In this document: positions 12,137-19,625 of the stretch, in pieces | Layout: each line of letters opens with the position of its first letter | How positions within the stretch are numbered: the first letter of the stretch is position 1 | Assembly: GCA_023399095.1 (NCBI GenBank) | Contig: JAEWQS010000077.1 | Span: 2,137 to 66,136 of the forward strand | Source of the DNA: Bacillota bacterium | GTDB taxonomy: Bacteria; Bacillota; Clostridia; Christensenellales; SZUA-584 | DNA length: 64,000 nucleotides | Direction of reading: 5' to 3' | Notes under the pieces: generated by a model | The model's input: the letters and a program-made list of their open reading frames with translations, nothing else | The model's database searches: none | What the model was told of the DNA's origin: nothing | Position numbers and translations under genes: made by a program

Positions 12137-12857
12137 CGTATTGACTCTGTTCCCCGAGATGTTCGAGTCGGTCTGCGCGGCCAGTATATGGGCGCGAGCC
12201 ATCAAAGCGGGACATATCGCTGTCAAAACGGTGAACATTCGCGATTGGACGACGGATAAGCACCACCGCGCTGACGACTATCCTTTGGGCGGCGGCGTGG
12301 GTATGGTGATGAAGCCTGAACCAGTGGACGCATGCTTCAAGGATGTGATGAGCAGTTGTGAAGCGCCTTGCCTCAACATCTATATGTCACCCTGCGGAAA
12401 AACGCTGTCACATTCGCTTGTGACGGAGCTGGCACAGTACCAAAGCCTCAACATCCTCTGCGGCCACTACGAAGGTGTGGACGCGCGCGTGCTCAAACGC
12501 CACATCGATATTGAGGTGTCGATAGGGGATTATGTGCTGACGGGCGGTGAGCTTGCAGCCATGGTACTGATCGATGCGTGCATCCGCCACGTAGACGGTG
12601 TGCTGGGGAACGGCGAGTCGGCGGTAGGAGAATCGTTTGCTAACGCGCTGCTCGAATACCCGCAGTATACGCGCCCTGCCGTTTACGACGGCGAAGCGGT
12701 GCCCGAGGTGCTGCTATCCGGCCATCATGCAAATGTGGACGCATACAGACGGCGCATGTCACTTAAAGAAACCGCTTTTCGGCGGCCCGACCTGCTTTCC
12801 AAGGCGAGGCTCACACAAAAGGATATCGACATCATCACAAGTCAAGACGACGAATAG
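12123..12857 (+). CDS. trmD: tRNA (guanine37-N1)-methyltransferase
   Basis: 244 aa. VLTLFPEMF N-terminus and GHYEGVDARV, VLTGGELAAMVLIDA motifs. Confidence 0.95.
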   Translation: MTTYNVLTLFPEMFESVCAASIWARAIKAGHIAVKTVNIRDWTTDKHHRADDYPLGGGVGMVMKPEPVDACFKDVMSSCEAPCLNIYMSPCGKTLSHSLVTELAQYQSLNILCGHYEGVDARVLKRHIDIEVSIGDYVLTGGELAAMVLIDACIRHVDGVLGNGESAVGESFANALLEYPQYTRPAVYDGEAVPEVLLSGHHANVDAYRRRMSLKETAFRRPDLLSKARLTQKDIDIITSQDDE

Positions 12858-12956
12858 CCCGCGCAAGCGGCGGCCTGAGAAAACGGTGCACTTGGCAAAC
12901 TATTCGATGCGCTTGCAAGCGCAAGCGGTAAAATGCCTTTATAGGGCTAAAGCTTA

Positions 12957-12987
12957 CCACTGGCTGACCGGTGGTCCTGATTTTGTT
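12957..12987 (+). terminator. possible terminator after trmD
   Basis: CCACTGG-CTGA-CCGGTGG stem (one wobble) followed by a T-rich tail. Confidence 0.45.
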
Positions 12988-13019
12988 AATAAAATGTGAA
13001 AATAATCCCTCTTATACTC

Positions 13020-13047
13020 TTGACATGAATCGTAAATTATATATAAT
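13020..13047 (+). promoter_or_regulatory. sigma-A-type promoter for tRNA-Asn
   Basis: TTGACA-N16-TATAAT ending about 19 nt before the tRNA 5' end. Confidence 0.5.
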
Positions 13048-13065
13048 AAAAAATCGGAAAACCGT

Positions 13066-13140
13066 TCCTCAGTAGCTCAGCGGTAGAGCATTCGGCTGTT
13101 AACCGAAGGGTCGTTGGTTCAAACCCAACCTGGGGAGCCA
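13066..13140 (+). tRNA. tRNA-Asn (anticodon GTT), CCA encoded
   Basis: Manual cloverleaf: acceptor TCCTCAG/CTGGGGA, D stem GCTC/GAGC, anticodon stem TTCGG/CCGAA with loop CTGTTAA, T stem GTTGG/CCAAC with loop TTCAAAC, discriminator G, CCA. Confidence 0.95.
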
Positions 13141-13143
13141 CAA

Positions 13144-13172
13144 GCTCAAGGCATAAAACCTTGGGCTTTTTT
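13144..13172 (+). terminator. rho-independent terminator after tRNA-Asn
   Basis: GCTCAAGG / CCTTGGGC stem followed by T6. Confidence 0.75.
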
Positions 13173-13223
13173 AATTCCTTTTCGCTAATGGGTAATACAT
13201 ATAAGTAAAATGATAATAAATTA

Positions 13224-13252
13224 TTGAAAAACAATAAATTATATGTTATAAT
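13224..13252 (+). promoter_or_regulatory. sigma-A-type promoter for the exosortase-like operon
   Basis: TTGAAA-N17-TATAAT in a very AT-rich spacer. Confidence 0.5.
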
Positions 13253-13315
13253 TACCAAAACAATGAGCGGAACAATTCGTTTTTTCAAGTAGCTTCGAGC
13301 TTCTTATAGGAGTCA

Positions 13316-13837
13316 ATGTACGTGAATTTAAAAAGACAGAAAACTGATTATATCAATATCCTTTTCGCAGCTTTCGCGATTGCTTTTAGCGTACTGTTCA
13401 TTCTCGCATATAATATGGCCAATGATAAAGCTATAGCGTTGCTGCTTTCACCCCATGCGATGTTCACAGAGCTCTTCTACAATATCAATCTGACCTATGT
13501 TGAAAATGTCGGTTACATAGGGCTTGGCACTGCCTTTATTATCGCAAAAGATTGCTTTGGTGTTTATTTTGTTGCGATGCTATTTTGTATGTTTGTGTGC
13601 GGTTTTGTGAAACAATTCAGTAGCGTCAAAAAGCTGTATTGGTGTGGATTTTCGTTTGTTTTGGCGGTGGTTGTGGGCGTTCTGGTCAGTTGTATGCGAA
13701 TCATAGGCTCTATACCTTTTGTATCTTCAGAAAAGTTTTCAACACTGCATACGGGAATAGGCGCTGTTTTGTATTTGCTTACGCTGATCTCTAGTTACGC
13801 CATCTTAAGAAATATTTTAAGGAGACAAAAAACGTGA
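13316..13837 (+). CDS. exosortase/archaeosortase-like polytopic membrane protein (putative sorting transpeptidase)
   Basis: 173 aa with about 5-6 TM helices. Ordered candidate triad: Cys80 (IIAKDCFG, TGC 13553-13555), Arg128 (SCMRIIG, CGA 13697-13699), His145 (STLHTGIG, CAT 13748-13750). Stop overlaps the start of the next gene. Start could be GTG 13322. Confidence 0.6.
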   Translation: MYVNLKRQKTDYINILFAAFAIAFSVLFILAYNMANDKAIALLLSPHAMFTELFYNINLTYVENVGYIGLGTAFIIAKDCFGVYFVAMLFCMFVCGFVKQFSSVKKLYWCGFSFVLAVVVGVLVSCMRIIGSIPFVSSEKFSTLHTGIGAVLYLLTLISSYAILRNILRRQKT

Positions 13838-16506
13838 AAATAAGCAAACAATCAATTGGCTTTTTGTGTGTCGTAACACTGCCTCAATTACTGCTGTCAG
13901 TTCTTTTTGCTTTGCTGCTGCTTCAAAAACCAAATGAAGTGGCTGGATGGGTGCTTGCAGCCTCACTGGTCGCAAATGTGTTTTTTACTGTCTACGTGTT
14001 TATTAAAGGCAAAACTCAAAGCCTGTCTATGCGCTTTCATATGTTGCTGGCTTGTACTTACGCCGCGATGCTCATCGGGGGCATGGTTTTGCTTGAAGAC
14101 AGCAGCCTATGGGGGGTTATGAGCGTGCGCCTTACGGCATTGCTTATTGATTCCGCTGCGGTTATTTACGCCTTATTTCAAATTGCAAATCGTACATCCG
14201 CCGATATCTCAAAGCAGATCGTCGCTTTGGTGGCCGTGCCGCTTATTTGGTTGTTTGCTTACAACATTCTGAGCGGTGCCCGTCTAGATACAGCTGTCAT
14301 GATACTGATTGTTTTGGGCGGCATTGTCATGGCGTATCTTATCATCAAGATAATATTGGTGAAACGACAGGAGAAGATCGAGTCTGGACAAAGGCCAAAA
14401 AGGCTGGCGCTTTATATCATATTCTCCTTGGTGTTACCGATAGCCGGGCTGACACTTAACGTCAGCATGGATAACCTTTTCGGCGATTTTTCTGATCCTC
14501 TTTTCTTTTTCGTTCCTTTTATTAACGGTGTTTTGCTGATCGTACCGCCGCCGTCGGAGAAACGGCTGCGGCTGCTTCGCTTTTTCATTATAGCTGCCGC
14601 AACAACGTATTTGCTCTATTTCTTCATTGCGTTTTTGCCGTACATGCCGATTGGTTTTCTTGGCTTGGCGATTGTGCTTGGGGCATTGGTTTTTGCACCG
14701 GCAGCTGCACTTGTTATGCAAATCATTTATCTGATTCAAGAGTGGAAGGCAGTTTCCGTTCTTTGGGGTACCATTCGGTTGACGGCTGTTTTTGTTGCCG
14801 GGCTTGTTTTGCTGCCGATACTGGTGCTCACAAGCTATCTGGGAGATCGTGTAAATCTCGAAAAAGCGATAGCATACACTGAGCAGGATATCAGTGTAAA
14901 TGGTGAGATCATTGATTTTGGCCGACTGGACAGAGCACTTGATAACGCGGATGCCGTTGAAGAGAAGGATCGGTTTTTTGATATGCGAGTAGCAGACAAC
15001 ACGCCGATTCTGTCTTCAATCTATGCTCATTTGGTTCTGGACAGCCGTATCCTTGCAAACGACCGGCTGGAGAAACTGCGAATGGCTTTCTTTGGGGAGT
15101 ATCCTGAGCAGGGTTTTGCGAACGGTTTGACGACAGATATGGAGATGCCGCAGGTTAAGCTCAAGGATATATCAACTCAAACGACATTTGACAATACAAC
15201 AGGCATTTTTCGAACATGGGTGAATATCACCCTGCAGGGGCCCAAAAACGGATGGAATGAGGAATACGTCACAGAGTTTGCGCTGCCCGAAGGCGCATAC
15301 ATCAGCGACTATTACCTTGATGTATTTGGCACGAAGAAGATGGGTATTTTGGCAGACCAAAGAGCTGCCATGTGGCTTTATAATGATATCGTTGTGCAAA
15401 CACCTGCACAGGACCCCGGCTTGCTTCACTATACGGGAGACCGGACAATTGAACTGAGGGTTTATCCGTTTAACGGAGATGAGCCGCGTTATACCGGCTT
15501 TGAAATCATCCACAACGAAACGGCAACGATACGAATTGATGGGGAAGAGGTACTGCTGTCGGCTCCGCCGCAGACCCGGCTGAAGGAAATGGAACACGCT
15601 GTGCTGATACCCGGAGCGGTGAAAGACGGGCTGCCGGTGGCTCAGGAGAGACCGCGCCGGTATTACTTCATCGTCGATTGCTCTAAAGACAGCGACATTG
15701 ACGATCAGCTATACCGCATCGAAGATTATGCTCAAGGTAAAGGGATTTTAGATGCGACGGTTATTTTTGCGACATATAAAACCAACACATGCCGTTTGAA
15801 AAATGCCGATTCGGTTAACATCACGCCCCAGAGCGGTTTTAATCTTGCGTTGGCAGTCAAGTCAATTCTGATACAAAACGGAGACGACAGTGTGCCGGTT
15901 ATACTATTCACGTCCGATAACCCTGCTCTGGCGCTGATTCCGAAAAATGTAACGGTTCTTGCGGCTCAGTATCCGGAAAGCGATTATTACTATCGATTAA
16001 ACGCTGACGAAACGCTAAACGGTTATGATTTTGAAACAGGAAAAAATGTTGGAAAGATGAACCAGCCACTCATATCACAAGCGCGGATGTATAACGGTGT
16101 GAGGGTGCGGGATGACAGCCAAACTCAAATCTTACCTAACGATTCCGTTGATTTTATGGATATGGAGATTTCGGGTAACGAATACGAGCAGGCTGTTATG
16201 CTGGACATAGCGGCGAGAAACGGTGGAGCGCAGAACGCAGCGCAGTCACTCAAACTGCTGCGTGCAAGCTTCAAGGCGGGCATTTTAACACCGCAGACAG
16301 CGTTTATCGTTGTGGAAACGCAGGCGCAGGAAGTCGATCTTCTTGCGAAGCAGCAGCAATTGATCAAGGAGGACAAAGAACTGATAAAAGAACAGAATGC
16401 TGTGAAATCTCTGGATGAGCCGTCAGCCTTGGTATGCGCGTTTATCGCCTTGCTTGGCCTCTCTTTGGTAAAACTGTGGAAAAGAAACAGAACAGAAACT
16501 CGTTGA
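13834..16506 (+). CDS. 890-aa polytopic membrane protein with VIT-like and vWA-like regions and a C-terminal PEP-CTERM-style (DEP-TM-KRNR) sorting tail
   Basis: GTG start in a GTGA overlap, AAGGAGA RBS. About 11 hydrophobic helices in aa 1-340. VIT-like stretch FALPEGAYISDYYLDVFGTK...DPGLLHY...IELRVYPF. vWA-like YYFIVDCSKDSD. Tail LDEPSALVCAFIALLGLSLVKLWKRNRTETR. Confidence 0.65.
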   Translation: MKISKQSIGFLCVVTLPQLLLSVLFALLLLQKPNEVAGWVLAASLVANVFFTVYVFIKGKTQSLSMRFHMLLACTYAAMLIGGMVLLEDSSLWGVMSVRLTALLIDSAAVIYALFQIANRTSADISKQIVALVAVPLIWLFAYNILSGARLDTAVMILIVLGGIVMAYLIIKIILVKRQEKIESGQRPKRLALYIIFSLVLPIAGLTLNVSMDNLFGDFSDPLFFFVPFINGVLLIVPPPSEKRLRLLRFFIIAAATTYLLYFFIAFLPYMPIGFLGLAIVLGALVFAPAAALVMQIIYLIQEWKAVSVLWGTIRLTAVFVAGLVLLPILVLTSYLGDRVNLEKAIAYTEQDISVNGEIIDFGRLDRALDNADAVEEKDRFFDMRVADNTPILSSIYAHLVLDSRILANDRLEKLRMAFFGEYPEQGFANGLTTDMEMPQVKLKDISTQTTFDNTTGIFRTWVNITLQGPKNGWNEEYVTEFALPEGAYISDYYLDVFGTKKMGILADQRAAMWLYNDIVVQTPAQDPGLLHYTGDRTIELRVYPFNGDEPRYTGFEIIHNETATIRIDGEEVLLSAPPQTRLKEMEHAVLIPGAVKDGLPVAQERPRRYYFIVDCSKDSDIDDQLYRIEDYAQGKGILDATVIFATYKTNTCRLKNADSVNITPQSGFNLALAVKSILIQNGDDSVPVILFTSDNPALALIPKNVTVLAAQYPESDYYYRLNADETLNGYDFETGKNVGKMNQPLISQARMYNGVRVRDDSQTQILPNDSVDFMDMEISGNEYEQAVMLDIAARNGGAQNAAQSLKLLRASFKAGILTPQTAFIVVETQAQEVDLLAKQQQLIKEDKELIKEQNAVKSLDEPSALVCAFIALLGLSLVKLWKRNRTETR

Positions 16507-16799
16507 TTAAATGCAAAGACATAGCCAAGAAAAGGCTTTATCAGTGTTGATAAGTGGATTTCAATACGATGATAAGAGTTTTTAACGTGGGGTTTATCCG
16601 CTGCTTCATCAATCGCTTACGCTCATGGGAAGACATATGTCCCTTGATTAACACTTTGGCATAGCCGTAAACAGCTGTGCCTTTTTCATTTAGTATAACC
16701 CGTACTCATTTGATTCAATGTCACTATTGACAATATATAAGGCATATAATAAAATACATATGACCAATATAGTAAAAACAGTCACAGGAGATTAGACTT

Positions 16800-17387
16800 A
16801 TGTCGCCTAAAGCATTTTCTGAAGAAGAAAAAGCATTGGTTCGCAACAAGCTTATTGAAGAAGCCAAAGAATGTCTTGCTACAACAGGTATCAAAAAAAC
16901 GACGGTTGAAGAGCTAAGCCGGGCAGCAGGCATATCCAAGGGCGCATTCTATATGTTCTATGACAGCAAAGAAATACTTTTTCTTGATGCGCTGGAATCG
17001 ATTCAGATAAAAATACACGACACGCTGATCAGTGAAGTGAAGCGACATAAAAACAAGAGGAGTAGTTTTATCCAAGTTATAAAAAGGATGTTTTTAGATT
17101 TTCGCCCTATACTCAATGTGCTTTCAAACGACGAATATGAAATCCTGCTGAGGCGAGTCCCGCAGGAGCGAATCAAACAGCATATAGAGATAGACGATAA
17201 GGCATCACGGCTTTTTTCAGAACAAATCAGCGGAAATAGAGTTAATCCGGAGCTTTTATCGGCTGCACTGCGTATGCTGATGCTGGGCATGCTGCATCAA
17301 AACGAAGTCGGTTCCCATGCCGAGGAAGCTTTTGACTACCTGCTCGAAGCTGTCGCTGATAAAATATTTTCGGAGGATCAAAAATGA
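16800..17387 (+). CDS. TetR/AcrR-family transcriptional regulator
   Basis: 195 aa with N-terminal HTH TTVEELSRAAGISKGAFYMFY. Confidence 0.85.
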   Translation: MSPKAFSEEEKALVRNKLIEEAKECLATTGIKKTTVEELSRAAGISKGAFYMFYDSKEILFLDALESIQIKIHDTLISEVKRHKNKRSSFIQVIKRMFLDFRPILNVLSNDEYEILLRRVPQERIKQHIEIDDKASRLFSEQISGNRVNPELLSAALRMLMLGMLHQNEVGSHAEEAFDYLLEAVADKIFSEDQK

Positions 17388-18235
17388 TTAGCGTAGATAA
17401 TCTGCATTTCACGTATCCAAGCGCCAAACAGGAAACGCTTAAAGGAATGAGCTTCTCGGCAGATAAGGGTGAGATATTCGGCTTCTTAGGGCCATCAGGA
17501 GCGGGTAAGAGCACGGCTCAAAAGATACTCACAGGCATACTCAAGGGCTATTCCGGCAGCGTCAAGGTGTTTGGAGGAGAGGTGCGGCTCAAAAAGCGTG
17601 ATTATTATGAACGCATCGGCGTGGCGATGGAAGTGCCGAATCTATACGGTAAGTTCACCGCGCTGGAGAACCTTCGTTACTTTGCGTCGCTTTATCAATC
17701 ACCTTGCGAGGACGCCATTAAGCTCATGGAAAGGCTGGAACTCGAGCAGGACATAAACACACGTGTATCAGGCTACTCAAAGGGAATGAAGATGAGACTC
17801 AATTTTATTCGCGCCCTCATGCATCGGCCGGACATATTGTTTCTGGATGAACCAACGGCGGGTCTTGATCCGACACGTTCTCGCATTATCAAAGATATGG
17901 TGTTGGAGCAAAAGGAGAAAGGGCGAACCGTTCTGCTGACCACGCACGACATGCATCTGGCCGAGGAGCTTTGTGACCGCGTCGCTTTCATCATAGATGG
18001 CACGATCAAGATGATGGATACGCCGATGAACCTGCGTTTGCGCGCGGGAGACAGACGCGTGCGTTACACATGGTTAGAGGGTAAACGCCGTGAGACGGTA
18101 ATACCACTGCACAGTCTCAAAGATGATGCACAATTCTTGTCATTGCTCAAGCAGGATAAAATTGAAACGGTGCATACGCTTGAGCCTTCGTTGGAGGACT
18201 TGTTTATTGAAGTGACGGGGAGGAGTCTGACATGA
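17384..18235 (+). CDS. ABC transporter ATP-binding protein
   Basis: Walker A GPSGAGKST, signature YSKGMKMR, Walker B ILFLDEPT. ATGA overlap with the tetR-like gene. Confidence 0.9.
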   Translation: MISVDNLHFTYPSAKQETLKGMSFSADKGEIFGFLGPSGAGKSTAQKILTGILKGYSGSVKVFGGEVRLKKRDYYERIGVAMEVPNLYGKFTALENLRYFASLYQSPCEDAIKLMERLELEQDINTRVSGYSKGMKMRLNFIRALMHRPDILFLDEPTAGLDPTRSRIIKDMVLEQKEKGRTVLLTTHDMHLAEELCDRVAFIIDGTIKMMDTPMNLRLRAGDRRVRYTWLEGKRRETVIPLHSLKDDAQFLSLLKQDKIETVHTLEPSLEDLFIEVTGRSLT

Positions 18236-18933
18236 AAAGGCTTTATCACGCTTTTTTGTCGGATGTGCGTTACCAGCGACGGTACGGCTTCTATTTAGTT
18301 TATGGCTTCCTCACCGTTTGTTTTATCATTGTACTGCGGCTGCTTCCGGATAGCTGGCGTGAGACAGCGCTTGTGGTAACGTTGCTTGCAGATCCCGCGT
18401 TGCTCGGGCTTTTCTTTATCGGCGGCCTTAAGCAGCTTGAGCGGGGCGAGGGTATACTGGATGCGCTTTTCAGCTCGCCGCTGCGTCCGTGGGAATACAT
18501 CGTGTCTAAAGCGTTATCACTTGGGATGATATCCACGCTTGTCAGTGTTATCGTGGCACTGGGCAGCGGTGTGCCGGGTGTTAAGTTTGCCGTGCTTGTT
18601 CCGGCAATTCTATTCGGCAGCATGTGCTTCACGCTTATCGGCCTCGCGGTATCGGTGAACTTGAAGAGCATGAACGCGTTTTTATCCGTTGACGGTTTAT
18701 GGGAAGCAGTGCTGCTGCTGCCGCCGTTGCTGCTGATGTTCAATGTCTCGTTTGCTCCGCTAGAGTTTTTTCCCGGAAGCATCGCACTACGGCTCGTTCA
18801 AGCGTCGGCAGGGGTATATCCCATGTCTCATTTGATTTTCATTGAGTTGTTGATCTGGGTGGCAATCGCGTTTTGGTTCGCGCAAAGACGGCTGGCTTCA
18901 GCGCTCAGCCGGATGGGAGGCGGTGCGGCATGA
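18232..18933 (+). CDS. ABC-2-type exporter permease
   Basis: 233 aa with about 6 TM helices, translationally coupled to the ATPase. Confidence 0.7.
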   Translation: MKRLYHAFLSDVRYQRRYGFYLVYGFLTVCFIIVLRLLPDSWRETALVVTLLADPALLGLFFIGGLKQLERGEGILDALFSSPLRPWEYIVSKALSLGMISTLVSVIVALGSGVPGVKFAVLVPAILFGSMCFTLIGLAVSVNLKSMNAFLSVDGLWEAVLLLPPLLLMFNVSFAPLEFFPGSIALRLVQASAGVYPMSHLIFIELLIWVAIAFWFAQRRLASALSRMGGGAA

Positions 18934-19625
18934 CGAGTATATTAAAGACTTTTTTCGGTTCCTTTAAACTGATTCGGCGTGATCCCTTGCTGATGATACT
19001 GGTATTGGGTCCCTTTCTGTATGGCCCGGCTTTCCGCTTTGGCCTGCCATTGCTGCAGCCGGTGCTGATGAATGCGTTTGCGTTCGATATCACGCCATGG
19101 TATTCGCTTACAGACATGATGCTTTTGACGCTGACGCCCATGTTGGCAGGCATGCTGTGCGGATTTTTGATGCTGGATGAACGCGATCAAGGTTTGGGAG
19201 AATACTACACAGTTACGCCTTTGGGCGGCGTTGGATACCTCGCTTCGCGGCTTGCATTGCCTGTAGTATGGAGCATCGTGATCGCGCCCGTGTTGATGCT
19301 GCTGTTTTCGCTCACTCATCCCGATATGCTGAGAGTACTTTGCATTGCCGTGACAGGCGGTGTATTTGGCGCAGTCAATACGCTGATGCTGTTAAGCTTC
19401 GCGGGCAATAAGGTGGAAGGACTCGCGGTGTCAAAAATGCTCGGGCTCACAATGCTGCCCGCACTCGTGCCTATCATCACAAGCTCGCCATGGGGATTGA
19501 TCGCGGGCATATTTCCGGCGTACTGGCTGGGCGCGCTGCTGAAAGGACCGCTGTGGCTTTTCCCCGCGGCGCTGGCCGTAGGAGTGATATGGATTGTCAT
19601 ATTTTATAGAAGGATGCGAAAATAA
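18930..19625 (+). CDS. second ABC exporter permease
   Basis: MTSILKTFFG start at 18930 overlapping the upstream stop; polytopic. The TetR + ATPase + two permeases layout resembles drug-export ABC loci. Confidence 0.7.
   Translation: MTSILKTFFGSFKLIRRDPLLMILVLGPFLYGPAFRFGLPLLQPVLMNAFAFDITPWYSLTDMMLLTLTPMLAGMLCGFLMLDERDQGLGEYYTVTPLGGVGYLASRLALPVVWSIVIAPVLMLLFSLTHPDMLRVLCIAVTGGVFGAVNTLMLLSFAGNKVEGLAVSKMLGLTMLPALVPIITSSPWGLIAGIFPAYWLGALLKGPLWLFPAALAVGVIWIVIFYRRMRK

Follow-up and report, generated by a model that had tools for sequence, protein, structure and literature searches.

The 890-aa open reading frame that we called at positions 13834 to 16506 on the forward strand of the window (the whole stretch of 64,000 nucleotides of Clostridia DNA analyzed here) ends in a tail that raises a simple question: is it a sorting signal, and which enzyme would process it? 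The final 31 residues, LDEPSALVCAFIALLGLSLVKLWKRNRTETR, read from the ORF translation as residues 860-890, consist of the motif LDEP, a 19-residue hydrophobic helix and the basic cluster KRNR. The signature motif (16411 to 16422, forward strand), recognized in the sequence, in the tails of homologues and in the AlphaFold model, is encoded by CTG at 16411-16413 (L860), GAT at 16414-16416 (D861), GAG (E862) and CCG at 16420-16422 (P863). The hydrophobic stretch SALVCAFIALLGLSLVKLW (residues 864-882; 16423 to 16479, forward strand) is the membrane helix of the signal predicted by hydropathy and by the AlphaFold model. The cluster KRNR (residues 883-886), predicted to be cytoplasmic, TETR and the TGA stop codon at 16504-16506 complete the ORF (16480 to 16506, forward strand). 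In the AlphaFold model, residues 855-864 are disordered and precede a helix spanning residues 865-889; the LDEP motif lies in a low-confidence, flexible stretch, with zero spacer to the helix. The coordinates and the tripartite organization given in a preliminary description of this tail agree with these codons and residues.

The protein scored 702.3 bits against TIGR04286, the curated NCBIfam equivalog model of MSEP-CTERM proteins (cut-off 150), with residues 11-877 aligned to positions 10-911 of the 920 model positions. The 173-aa product encoded upstream scored 128.1 bits against TIGR04287, the model of exosortase K (cut-off 55). The tail is the C-terminal tag of an already catalogued pair, formed by exosortase K (XrtK) and a single large membrane-protein target. 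That it represents a PEP-CTERM-type (MSEP-CTERM) sorting signal is supported by the TIGR04286 score, the adjoining exosortase K and the presence of the tail in register in orthologues, and we consider it very probable that this is the sorting signal of the MSEP-CTERM protein and that the upstream XrtK is its dedicated processing enzyme. The likeness to PEP-CTERM/MSEP-CTERM signals had been described as exact; this holds for the architecture but not for the generic PEP-CTERM model TIGR02595 (cut-off 16), which found no match at the tail when the genome was searched and whose sole match reached 13.4 bits, on contig C57. The XrtK of this genome also remained below the cut-off of 23 of the generic exosortase signature TIGR04178 (18.3 bits; 20 in the genome search), which is a matter of model sensitivity since the XrtK of Geosporobacter passes with 27.8 bits. 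Pfam returned nothing at its default threshold for either XrtK or the 890-aa protein. Members from Clostridia already score very high against TIGR04286 (1070 bits for Desulfotruncus arcticus), so the occurrence of this family in Firmicutes is not new to the databases. A literature search on MSEP-CTERM, XrtK and exosortase K yielded no relevant paper and no experiment, and one on exosortases in Firmicutes yielded no paper containing the word 'exosortase'.

We further analyzed the pairing of the two genes. The xrtK gene occupies positions 13316 to 13837 of the forward strand, and its stop codon overlaps the GTG start codon of the 890-aa ORF by 4 nt, forming a putative co-transcribed pair. XrtK presents four clear hydrophobic helices, and its residues Cys80, Arg128 and His145, each kept in 79 of the 80 aligned XrtK sequences, are predicted by hydropathy topology to lie at the outer helix ends. 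A Cys/Arg/His triad is inferred to be catalytic in exosortases and archaeosortases (bioRxiv 10.1101/2023.06.07.544157). Among 80 species loci, XrtK was found directly upstream and on the same strand in every locus with upstream DNA. The neighbor was scored from its blastp cluster in 73 of the 80 loci; the contig ends right at the gene in six others (L033, L037, L047, L054, L058 and L094), and XrtK is listed immediately upstream in the seventh (L035), but its ORF fell outside the blastp cluster. No third gene was conserved as a neighbor across the 80 loci, the next commonest being present in nine. Of 61 related genomes, six contained both families above cut-off and 55 contained neither. Consecutive genes are a stated hallmark of dedicated one-to-one systems (bioRxiv 10.1101/2023.06.07.544157). 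Profile searches of the genome identified XrtK as its sole exosortase.

The alignment of homologue C-termini, one of the checks proposed in the preliminary description, revealed the same organization in 94/94 tails: [ML]-x-E-P directly against the hydrophobic stretch, with a K/R cluster after it. Median lengths are 15 residues for the uncharged stretch and 26 for all that follows the E-P. The tail is therefore conserved in register among orthologues, and the E-P stands at the start of the helix at a fixed distance from the C-terminus, instead of the variable position expected of a generic last helix. Within the motif, E-P is invariant and the first two positions vary (MSEP in 58 tails; LDEP in 19, plus 2 that were mis-scored by our script; LAEP, LSEP or LNEP in 10; MTEP in 4; MAEP in 1). 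The bulk of the family belongs to Bacteroidota, whose signature is MSEP or MTEP, and L-x-E-P defines a deep Bacillota clade (13/16 Bacillota loci versus 0/54 Bacteroidota loci). A recent transfer from Bacteroidota was rejected for the present copy, which sits in a deep and well-supported clade composed entirely of Bacillota.

We also searched the genome itself, which is 95% complete, for other proteins carrying such a tail. We used the search of the last 45 residues of six-frame ORFs without composition correction, full-length ORF searches having missed even the 890-aa protein. The 890-aa ORF was the sole one matching the tail profile through the motif positions, and when 20,599 ORFs were scanned with a loose regular expression it was again the only convincing match. 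The scan for further xEP tails followed by a membrane helix and a basic cluster, suggested as a way to distinguish one substrate from several, thus points to one substrate. A chance resemblance to the hydrophobic C-terminus of an ordinary membrane protein must be considered at this point: C-terminal helices followed by basic residues are common, and many ORFs of this genome agree with the profile in its helix and basic portion. The restriction of the match through the motif to a single ORF, together with the persistence of the tail across phyla at overall identities down to 25%, leaves this explanation with a negligible probability, and the conservation observed in the aligned sequences refutes it.

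A Firmicute surface protein could be expected to carry a sortase signal, and three sortase-family genes were indeed found above the Pfam cut-off in this genome. Canonical LPXTG tails are scarce, which suggests that non-canonical sortase signals are in use; the inventory recovered a few non-canonical sortase-type tails (VPDTG, NPQTS, IPKAD and NPSTD), with spacers of several residues before the helix. Both the sortase genes and the scarcity of canonical tails are compatible with the tail being a variant of the LPXTG class and a substrate of one of these sortases. However, it has no LPXTG-like motif and no match to TIGR01167, its LDEP directly abuts the helix, and the same tail is shared by Bacteroidota, where it always lies beside XrtK. 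We consider a sortase signal extremely unlikely here, and the view that this is not an LPXTG signal was well founded. The matches to TIGR01167 elsewhere in the genome were rejected as sortase substrates, as these are internal helices and not C-terminal anchors. Neither BamA nor LpxC was found in this genome; with sortases present, this gene content suggests that the host is probably monoderm. The bearer of the tail is a polytopic protein with 11 predicted N-terminal helices and not a typical secreted surface protein.

The N-terminal domain (residues 1-332; 13834 to 14829, forward strand) contains 11 membrane helices predicted from hydropathy and the structure model. When modeled alone (pLDDT 80.8), it presented no meaningful neighbor in the PDB (best E 0.1, TM ≤ 0.28). 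From hydropathy and the positive-inside rule, the N-terminus and KRNR are predicted to face the cytoplasm and residues 333-863 to lie on the outside; the topology of the protein as a whole is a hydropathy-based prediction. The predicted extracytoplasmic part includes a VIT-like beta domain at residues 442-575 approximately (15157 to 15558, forward strand), suggested by weak matches to Pfam VIT and ITIH4 and by a Foldseek match to ITIH1. Pfam VIT matches weakly in this protein (E 0.015), with 22 of 23 family members matching at E ≤ 0.1, and searching PDB sequences with a profile yielded nothing beyond marginal matches. The AlphaFold model and Foldseek further indicate a vWA-like alpha/beta domain at about residues 605-800 (15646 to 16233, forward strand), in which D615 and S617 are invariant. 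In the AlphaFold model, a long acidic linker helix (residues 830-855; 16321 to 16398, forward strand) then leads into the tail. A protein cut at its tail would remain membrane-bound through the 11 N-terminal helices, so that losing the tail would bring no evident benefit, a point that counts against cleavage.

These features are consistent with the following scheme. The 11 N-terminal helices would insert into the cytoplasmic membrane and place the 530-residue VIT/vWA-like domain outside; the last helix (residues 864-882) would cross the membrane again, with KRNR kept in the cytoplasm. The invariant Glu-Pro would thereby come to lie at the outer surface of this membrane, level with the predicted Cys80/Arg128/His145 center of the four-helix XrtK. 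This putative membrane-embedded cysteine protease would cut at or beside the E-P and remove the helix and the basic tail. On the model of sortase and archaeosortase A, it may then transfer the freed C-terminus to an acceptor. We infer the cleavage, its site and any acceptor; a motif abutting the helix without a spacer, as seen here, has been described for signals of the PEP-CTERM type that membrane-embedded enzymes cut (bioRxiv 10.1101/2023.06.07.544157). Alternatively, the tail could be a permanent twelfth helix that is never cut and holds both ends of the outside domain, with XrtK acting as a partner, as an assembly factor or as an enzyme for another substrate. In its favor, 11 predicted helices already hold the protein firmly in the membrane, so that sorting does not require the loss of an anchor. 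Yet the exact placement of E-P at the helix start and its fixed C-terminal distance in all homologue tails would not be expected of a plain anchor, and neither the protease-type Cys/Arg/His of the neighboring XrtK nor the strict co-occurrence of the two proteins fits well with it. We therefore regard a permanent helix as unlikely and favor a processed sorting signal.

Compared to the catalogued TIGR04286/TIGR04287 pair, the locus presents the same overlapping two-gene layout, the same tripartite tail and one enzyme with one target per genome. The architecture is similar to that of MSEP-CTERM homologues (890 aa here; 886-981 aa in complete homologues), but the motif is LDEP and not the usual MSEP, and the host possesses sortases. 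The tail resembles those of the PEP-CTERM/exosortase A system (XrtA, EpsH) of Gram-negative EPS producers in its Glu-Pro abutting the helix and its basic cluster, and XrtK is homologous to exosortase A, likewise membrane-embedded and with Cys/Arg/His, but much smaller (173 aa). PEP-CTERM systems involve one enzyme with many targets and are located in EPS loci (PMC1569441), whereas we found one target and no conserved additional neighbor, besides the lack of a TIGR02595 match at the tail. The XrtN system VIT domain protein (TIGR04477) is another VIT-domain protein with a dedicated exosortase; the enzyme subfamily differs, and the weak local match of our protein over the VIT region (44 bits, residues 474-553) is far under the cut-off of 250. 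The PGF-CTERM/archaeosortase A system relies on a homologous family of enzymes and on a tail of the same type, and for ArtA of Haloferax volcanii it has been shown that the C-terminal helix is removed and a lipid attached (bioRxiv 10.1101/2023.06.07.544157; see also PMC7157517); that system is archaeal, with a PGF signature, many targets and a known lipid acceptor. The LPXTG/sortase A system is analogous in its tripartite signal and its Cys/Arg/His chemistry (bioRxiv 10.1101/2023.06.07.544157), but the enzyme has an unrelated fold and a spacer separates LPXTG from the helix.

The outside domain shares a VIT and vWA-like fold with ITIH1 (PDB 6fpy; Foldseek E 4e-8, probability 1.00), but with 10% sequence identity and a low global TM-score (0.23-0.30), and ITIH proteins are soluble, eukaryotic and devoid of a membrane domain. 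In the heavy chains of inter-alpha-inhibitor, an Asp-Pro bond is cut and the new C-terminus becomes ester-linked to a glycosaminoglycan. By analogy, the bacterial pair could be a prokaryotic counterpart of the inter-alpha-inhibitor protein-glycan cross-link. Extending this idea, XrtK could provide monoderm Clostridia with a sortase-free covalent route, in which Glu-Pro would be cut and the C-terminal carboxyl of the VIT/vWA domain would be joined either to a polysaccharide of the wall or to a lipid; we regard this as a speculative and rather improbable scenario.

The surroundings of the pair were also inspected. A tRNA-Asn gene (GTT; 13066 to 13140, forward strand) is located immediately upstream of the module and has a promoter-like site (13020-13047) and a terminator-like hairpin (13142-13168) of its own. 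The pair itself is preceded by a promoter-like site (TTGAAA-17-TATAAT, 11/12, with TG; 13224 to 13252, forward strand) and followed on its 3' side by a terminator-like hairpin with a T run (16658 to 16681, forward strand); both are candidate elements proposed from consensus matches. Four genomes of the same genus share trmD, and the tRNA-Asn, the pair and the TetR/ABC genes are all absent downstream of it. As a search for an insertion after trmD, this comparison showed no clean empty site; an island at this position would be a tentative reading.

The immediate value of these results is practical and small: they allow two genes, one for exosortase K and one for the MSEP-CTERM protein that it targets, to be annotated correctly in the genome of an uncultured Christensenellales-like Clostridia. 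The pair has cultured carriers, namely Geosporobacter subterraneus DSM 17957 and Desulfotruncus arcticus DSM 17038. For the family, Glu-Pro is the sole invariant part of the signature, which takes the form L-x-E-P in the Bacillota clade. Finally, the pair is found unchanged in diderm Bacteroidota and in probably monoderm Clostridia, which implies that its putative reaction must reach its end at the cytoplasmic membrane, with no need of an outer membrane.

The large gene of the window (ORF 13834..16506, + strand) encodes a protein of 890 residues, the last 31 of which are LDEPSALVCAFIALLGLSLVKLWKRNRTETR. The LDEP motif (L860-D861-E862-P863) is encoded at 16411 (CTG), 16414 (GAT), 16417 (GAG) and 16420 (CCG) and the TGA stop lies at 16504-16506; codons and stop agree with the tail sequence and coordinates of the preliminary description. 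The protein matches the NCBIfam model TIGR04286 ("MSEP-CTERM sorting domain-containing protein") with 702.3 bits (cut-off: 150 bits). This alignment reaches residue 877, within the tail, which is thus the feature that defines a curated family. Just upstream, a 173-aa ORF (13316..13837, + strand), whose end overlaps the GTG start of the large gene by 4 nt, matches TIGR04287 "exosortase K" with 128.1 bits (cut-off: 55 bits). The enzyme that had been supposed from the tail is present and already named: exosortase K (XrtK). A Pfam search of both proteins returned zero models at threshold.

We then compared the C-termini of homologs. A search of protein collections yielded 25 further relatives (27-83% identity), 24 of which have x-x-E-P, a run of hydrophobic residues and then K/R at the C-terminus; in the most distant one (P0026), the hydrophobic run and the basic cluster are present without the E-P motif. 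A further scan, with each species represented by one genome, found 191 stretches that code for relatives, and the best 80 loci were analyzed. Across 94 tails, the motif was MSEP in 58, LDEP in 19, LAEP, LSEP or LNEP in 10, MTEP in four and MAEP in one; the remaining two, mis-scored by our script, are likewise LDEP. Thus, the glutamate and the proline are invariant in these 94 tails. The hydrophobic stretch contains a median of 15 uncharged residues, the eight residues that follow it a median of four K/R, and EP stands a median of 26 residues before the C-terminus. The tail is therefore kept in orthologs at a fixed place relative to the C-terminus, which removes both objections raised beforehand, namely a non-conserved tail and a generic last helix of variable position.

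XrtK is encoded directly upstream on the same strand, mostly overlapping, at 73 of the 80 loci. In six of the seven others a contig ends within ~200 nt of the large gene; at the seventh (locus L035), XrtK is directly upstream, but its ORF fell outside the blastp cluster that was counted. We searched these 80 loci for a third conserved neighbor and found no gene family common to more than nine of them: the XrtK/MSEP-CTERM module consists of two genes. We also compared 61 genomes from the genus, family and order of the host: six carry both families above cut-off, and the other 55 carry neither. A 400-genome sample of the class contained XrtK in four other genomes (~1%). Cys80, Arg128 and His145 of the window XrtK are each kept in 79 of 80 aligned sequences, and a Cys/Arg/His triad has been inferred for exosortases and archaeosortases (bioRxiv 10.1101/2023.06.07.544157).

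The genome itself (95% complete, 193 contigs) encodes one XrtK, and no other exosortase was found in it. A loose pattern scan of its 20,599 ORFs revealed no further convincing tail. With a profile built from 93 homolog tails, the large ORF alone matched through the motif positions, the other matches being restricted to the helix and basic part. The genome-wide scan proposed earlier thus indicates one enzyme with one substrate; consecutive genes are expected of a dedicated system (bioRxiv 10.1101/2023.06.07.544157).

Comparison with the sortase inventory upheld the view that this tail is not of the LPXTG type. Three sortase-family genes scored above the Pfam cut-off in the genome. One of the three, on contig C5 (11935-12450, - strand; 39 bits), carries an internal TAA stop and may be a broken gene or two adjoining ORFs. 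Matches to the LPXTG model were rejected as anchors, all being internal helices. Separately, six large ORFs outside the window (contigs C3, C5, C140, C143, C145 and C152) have a common non-LPXTG C-terminal tail: each of the six ends with a helix that bears V/I-W-[WIF]-x-x-G, then a K/R cluster, and in four an x-P-x-T/A-[GSD] motif (VPDTG, NPQTS, IPKAD and NPSTD) and an acidic or Gly-rich spacer come before the helix. These four tails look like non-canonical sortase signals, and the six ORFs are probably real substrates of the genome's sortases, whose matches share contigs with two of them (C5 and C145). In contrast to the four spacer-bearing tails, the LDEP tail has no spacer before its helix, a difference that separates signals of membrane-embedded enzymes from LPXTG signals (bioRxiv 10.1101/2023.06.07.544157).

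Hydropathy of the large protein indicates 11 N-terminal helices, with alternating basic loops that fit an inside N-terminus, an acidic region predicted outside (residues 333-863), a last helix (864-882) and KRNR (883-886) predicted inside. The AlphaFold model is in agreement with this layout (mean pLDDT 78.5): the N-terminal helices are followed by a beta domain, an alpha/beta domain, a long helix (830-855), a low-confidence segment containing LDEP (855-864) and a final helix (865-889). The N-terminal domain had no structural neighbors in the PDB. The soluble part resembles inter-alpha-inhibitor heavy chain 1 (6fpy; Foldseek E 4e-8), consistent with weak VIT and ITIH4 sequence matches. Residues 615-620 (VDCSKDS, window 15676-15693), in which D615 and S617 are invariant in 23 family members and S620 comes next, resemble a shifted MIDAS metal-binding motif (DxSxS) of vWA domains; judging from this motif, the outside domain may bind a divalent cation. 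Cys80, Arg128 and His145 of XrtK are predicted at outer helix ends, level with E862-P863 of the substrate. Cleavage would most likely occur at or beside Glu-Pro on the outer face of the membrane and would remove the hydrophobic helix and basic tail. The C-terminal end created in this way may then be handed on to an acceptor; sortase is known to act like this, and archaeosortase A is suspected to (bioRxiv 10.1101/2023.06.07.544157).

A promoter-like site (13224-13252) precedes the pair, and a terminator-like hairpin (16658-16681) follows it. Further upstream lies a tRNA-Asn gene (13066-13140), likewise equipped with a promoter-like and a terminator-like site of its own. GC-content is 38-48% at ~12,800-17,300 versus 50-58% in both flanks. 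Four same-genus genomes have trmD in common with the window and nothing downstream of it; one of the four (G004) carries the pair on other contigs. Neither an empty site nor repeats could be demonstrated. The pair occurs in four of 22 species of the genus, a patchy distribution compatible with a small cassette having been gained or lost. The segment 12800-17300, from the tRNA-Asn, may be a small acquired islet. Directly downstream (16800-19625) lie a TetR-family regulator (PF00440) and three ORFs, a unit separate from the pair and not conserved beside XrtK at other loci. By eye, the 283-aa ORF that follows the regulator (17384-18235) resembles an ABC-type ATPase and the next two, very hydrophobic ORFs (18232-18933 and 18873-19625) resemble permease-like membrane proteins.

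The closest named relatives of the window Ffh are Christensenellales, Eubacteriales and Clostridia MAGs (78-83% identity). Omp85/BamA and LpxC were not found in the genome, although positive controls responded; considering the sortases as well, the host is probably a monoderm member of the Clostridia, and the earlier label "Firmicute" was right. The tail motif tracks phylogeny: the 16 Bacillota loci comprise 13 L-x-E-P, two MAEP and one MSEP, and loci of Bacteroidota and a few Spirochaetota, Campylobacterota and Balneolota present exclusively MSEP or MTEP. We built a maximum-likelihood tree from 77 proteins. The window protein groups there with Bacillota only, in a clade with full support (15 rows) that long branches part from the Bacteroidota clade; two further Bacillota rows lie at the base of the latter. 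Recent import of the window copy from Bacteroidota is therefore rejected. Elsewhere in the tree, seven loci (L063, L069, L079, L080, L084, L087 and L095) encode near-identical MSEP-CTERM proteins (branch lengths 0.02-0.12) in different Bacteroidota families and one Balneolota genome, which suggests that the two-gene cassette recently spread horizontally among marine Bacteroidota and their neighbors.

Our literature search on MSEP-CTERM or XrtK returned no paper, and knowledge of this system is confined to curated database models. These models cover Clostridia members well (TIGR04286 scores: 1070 bits for Desulfotruncus arcticus and 864 bits for Geosporobacter subterraneus), and one collection relative is already annotated as [quoted passage not shown]. 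With at most 47% identity to proteins of the collections, save one 83%-identical fragment, the window locus is a moderately divergent member of a known family, and LDEP is the usual form of the signature within its Bacillota clade.
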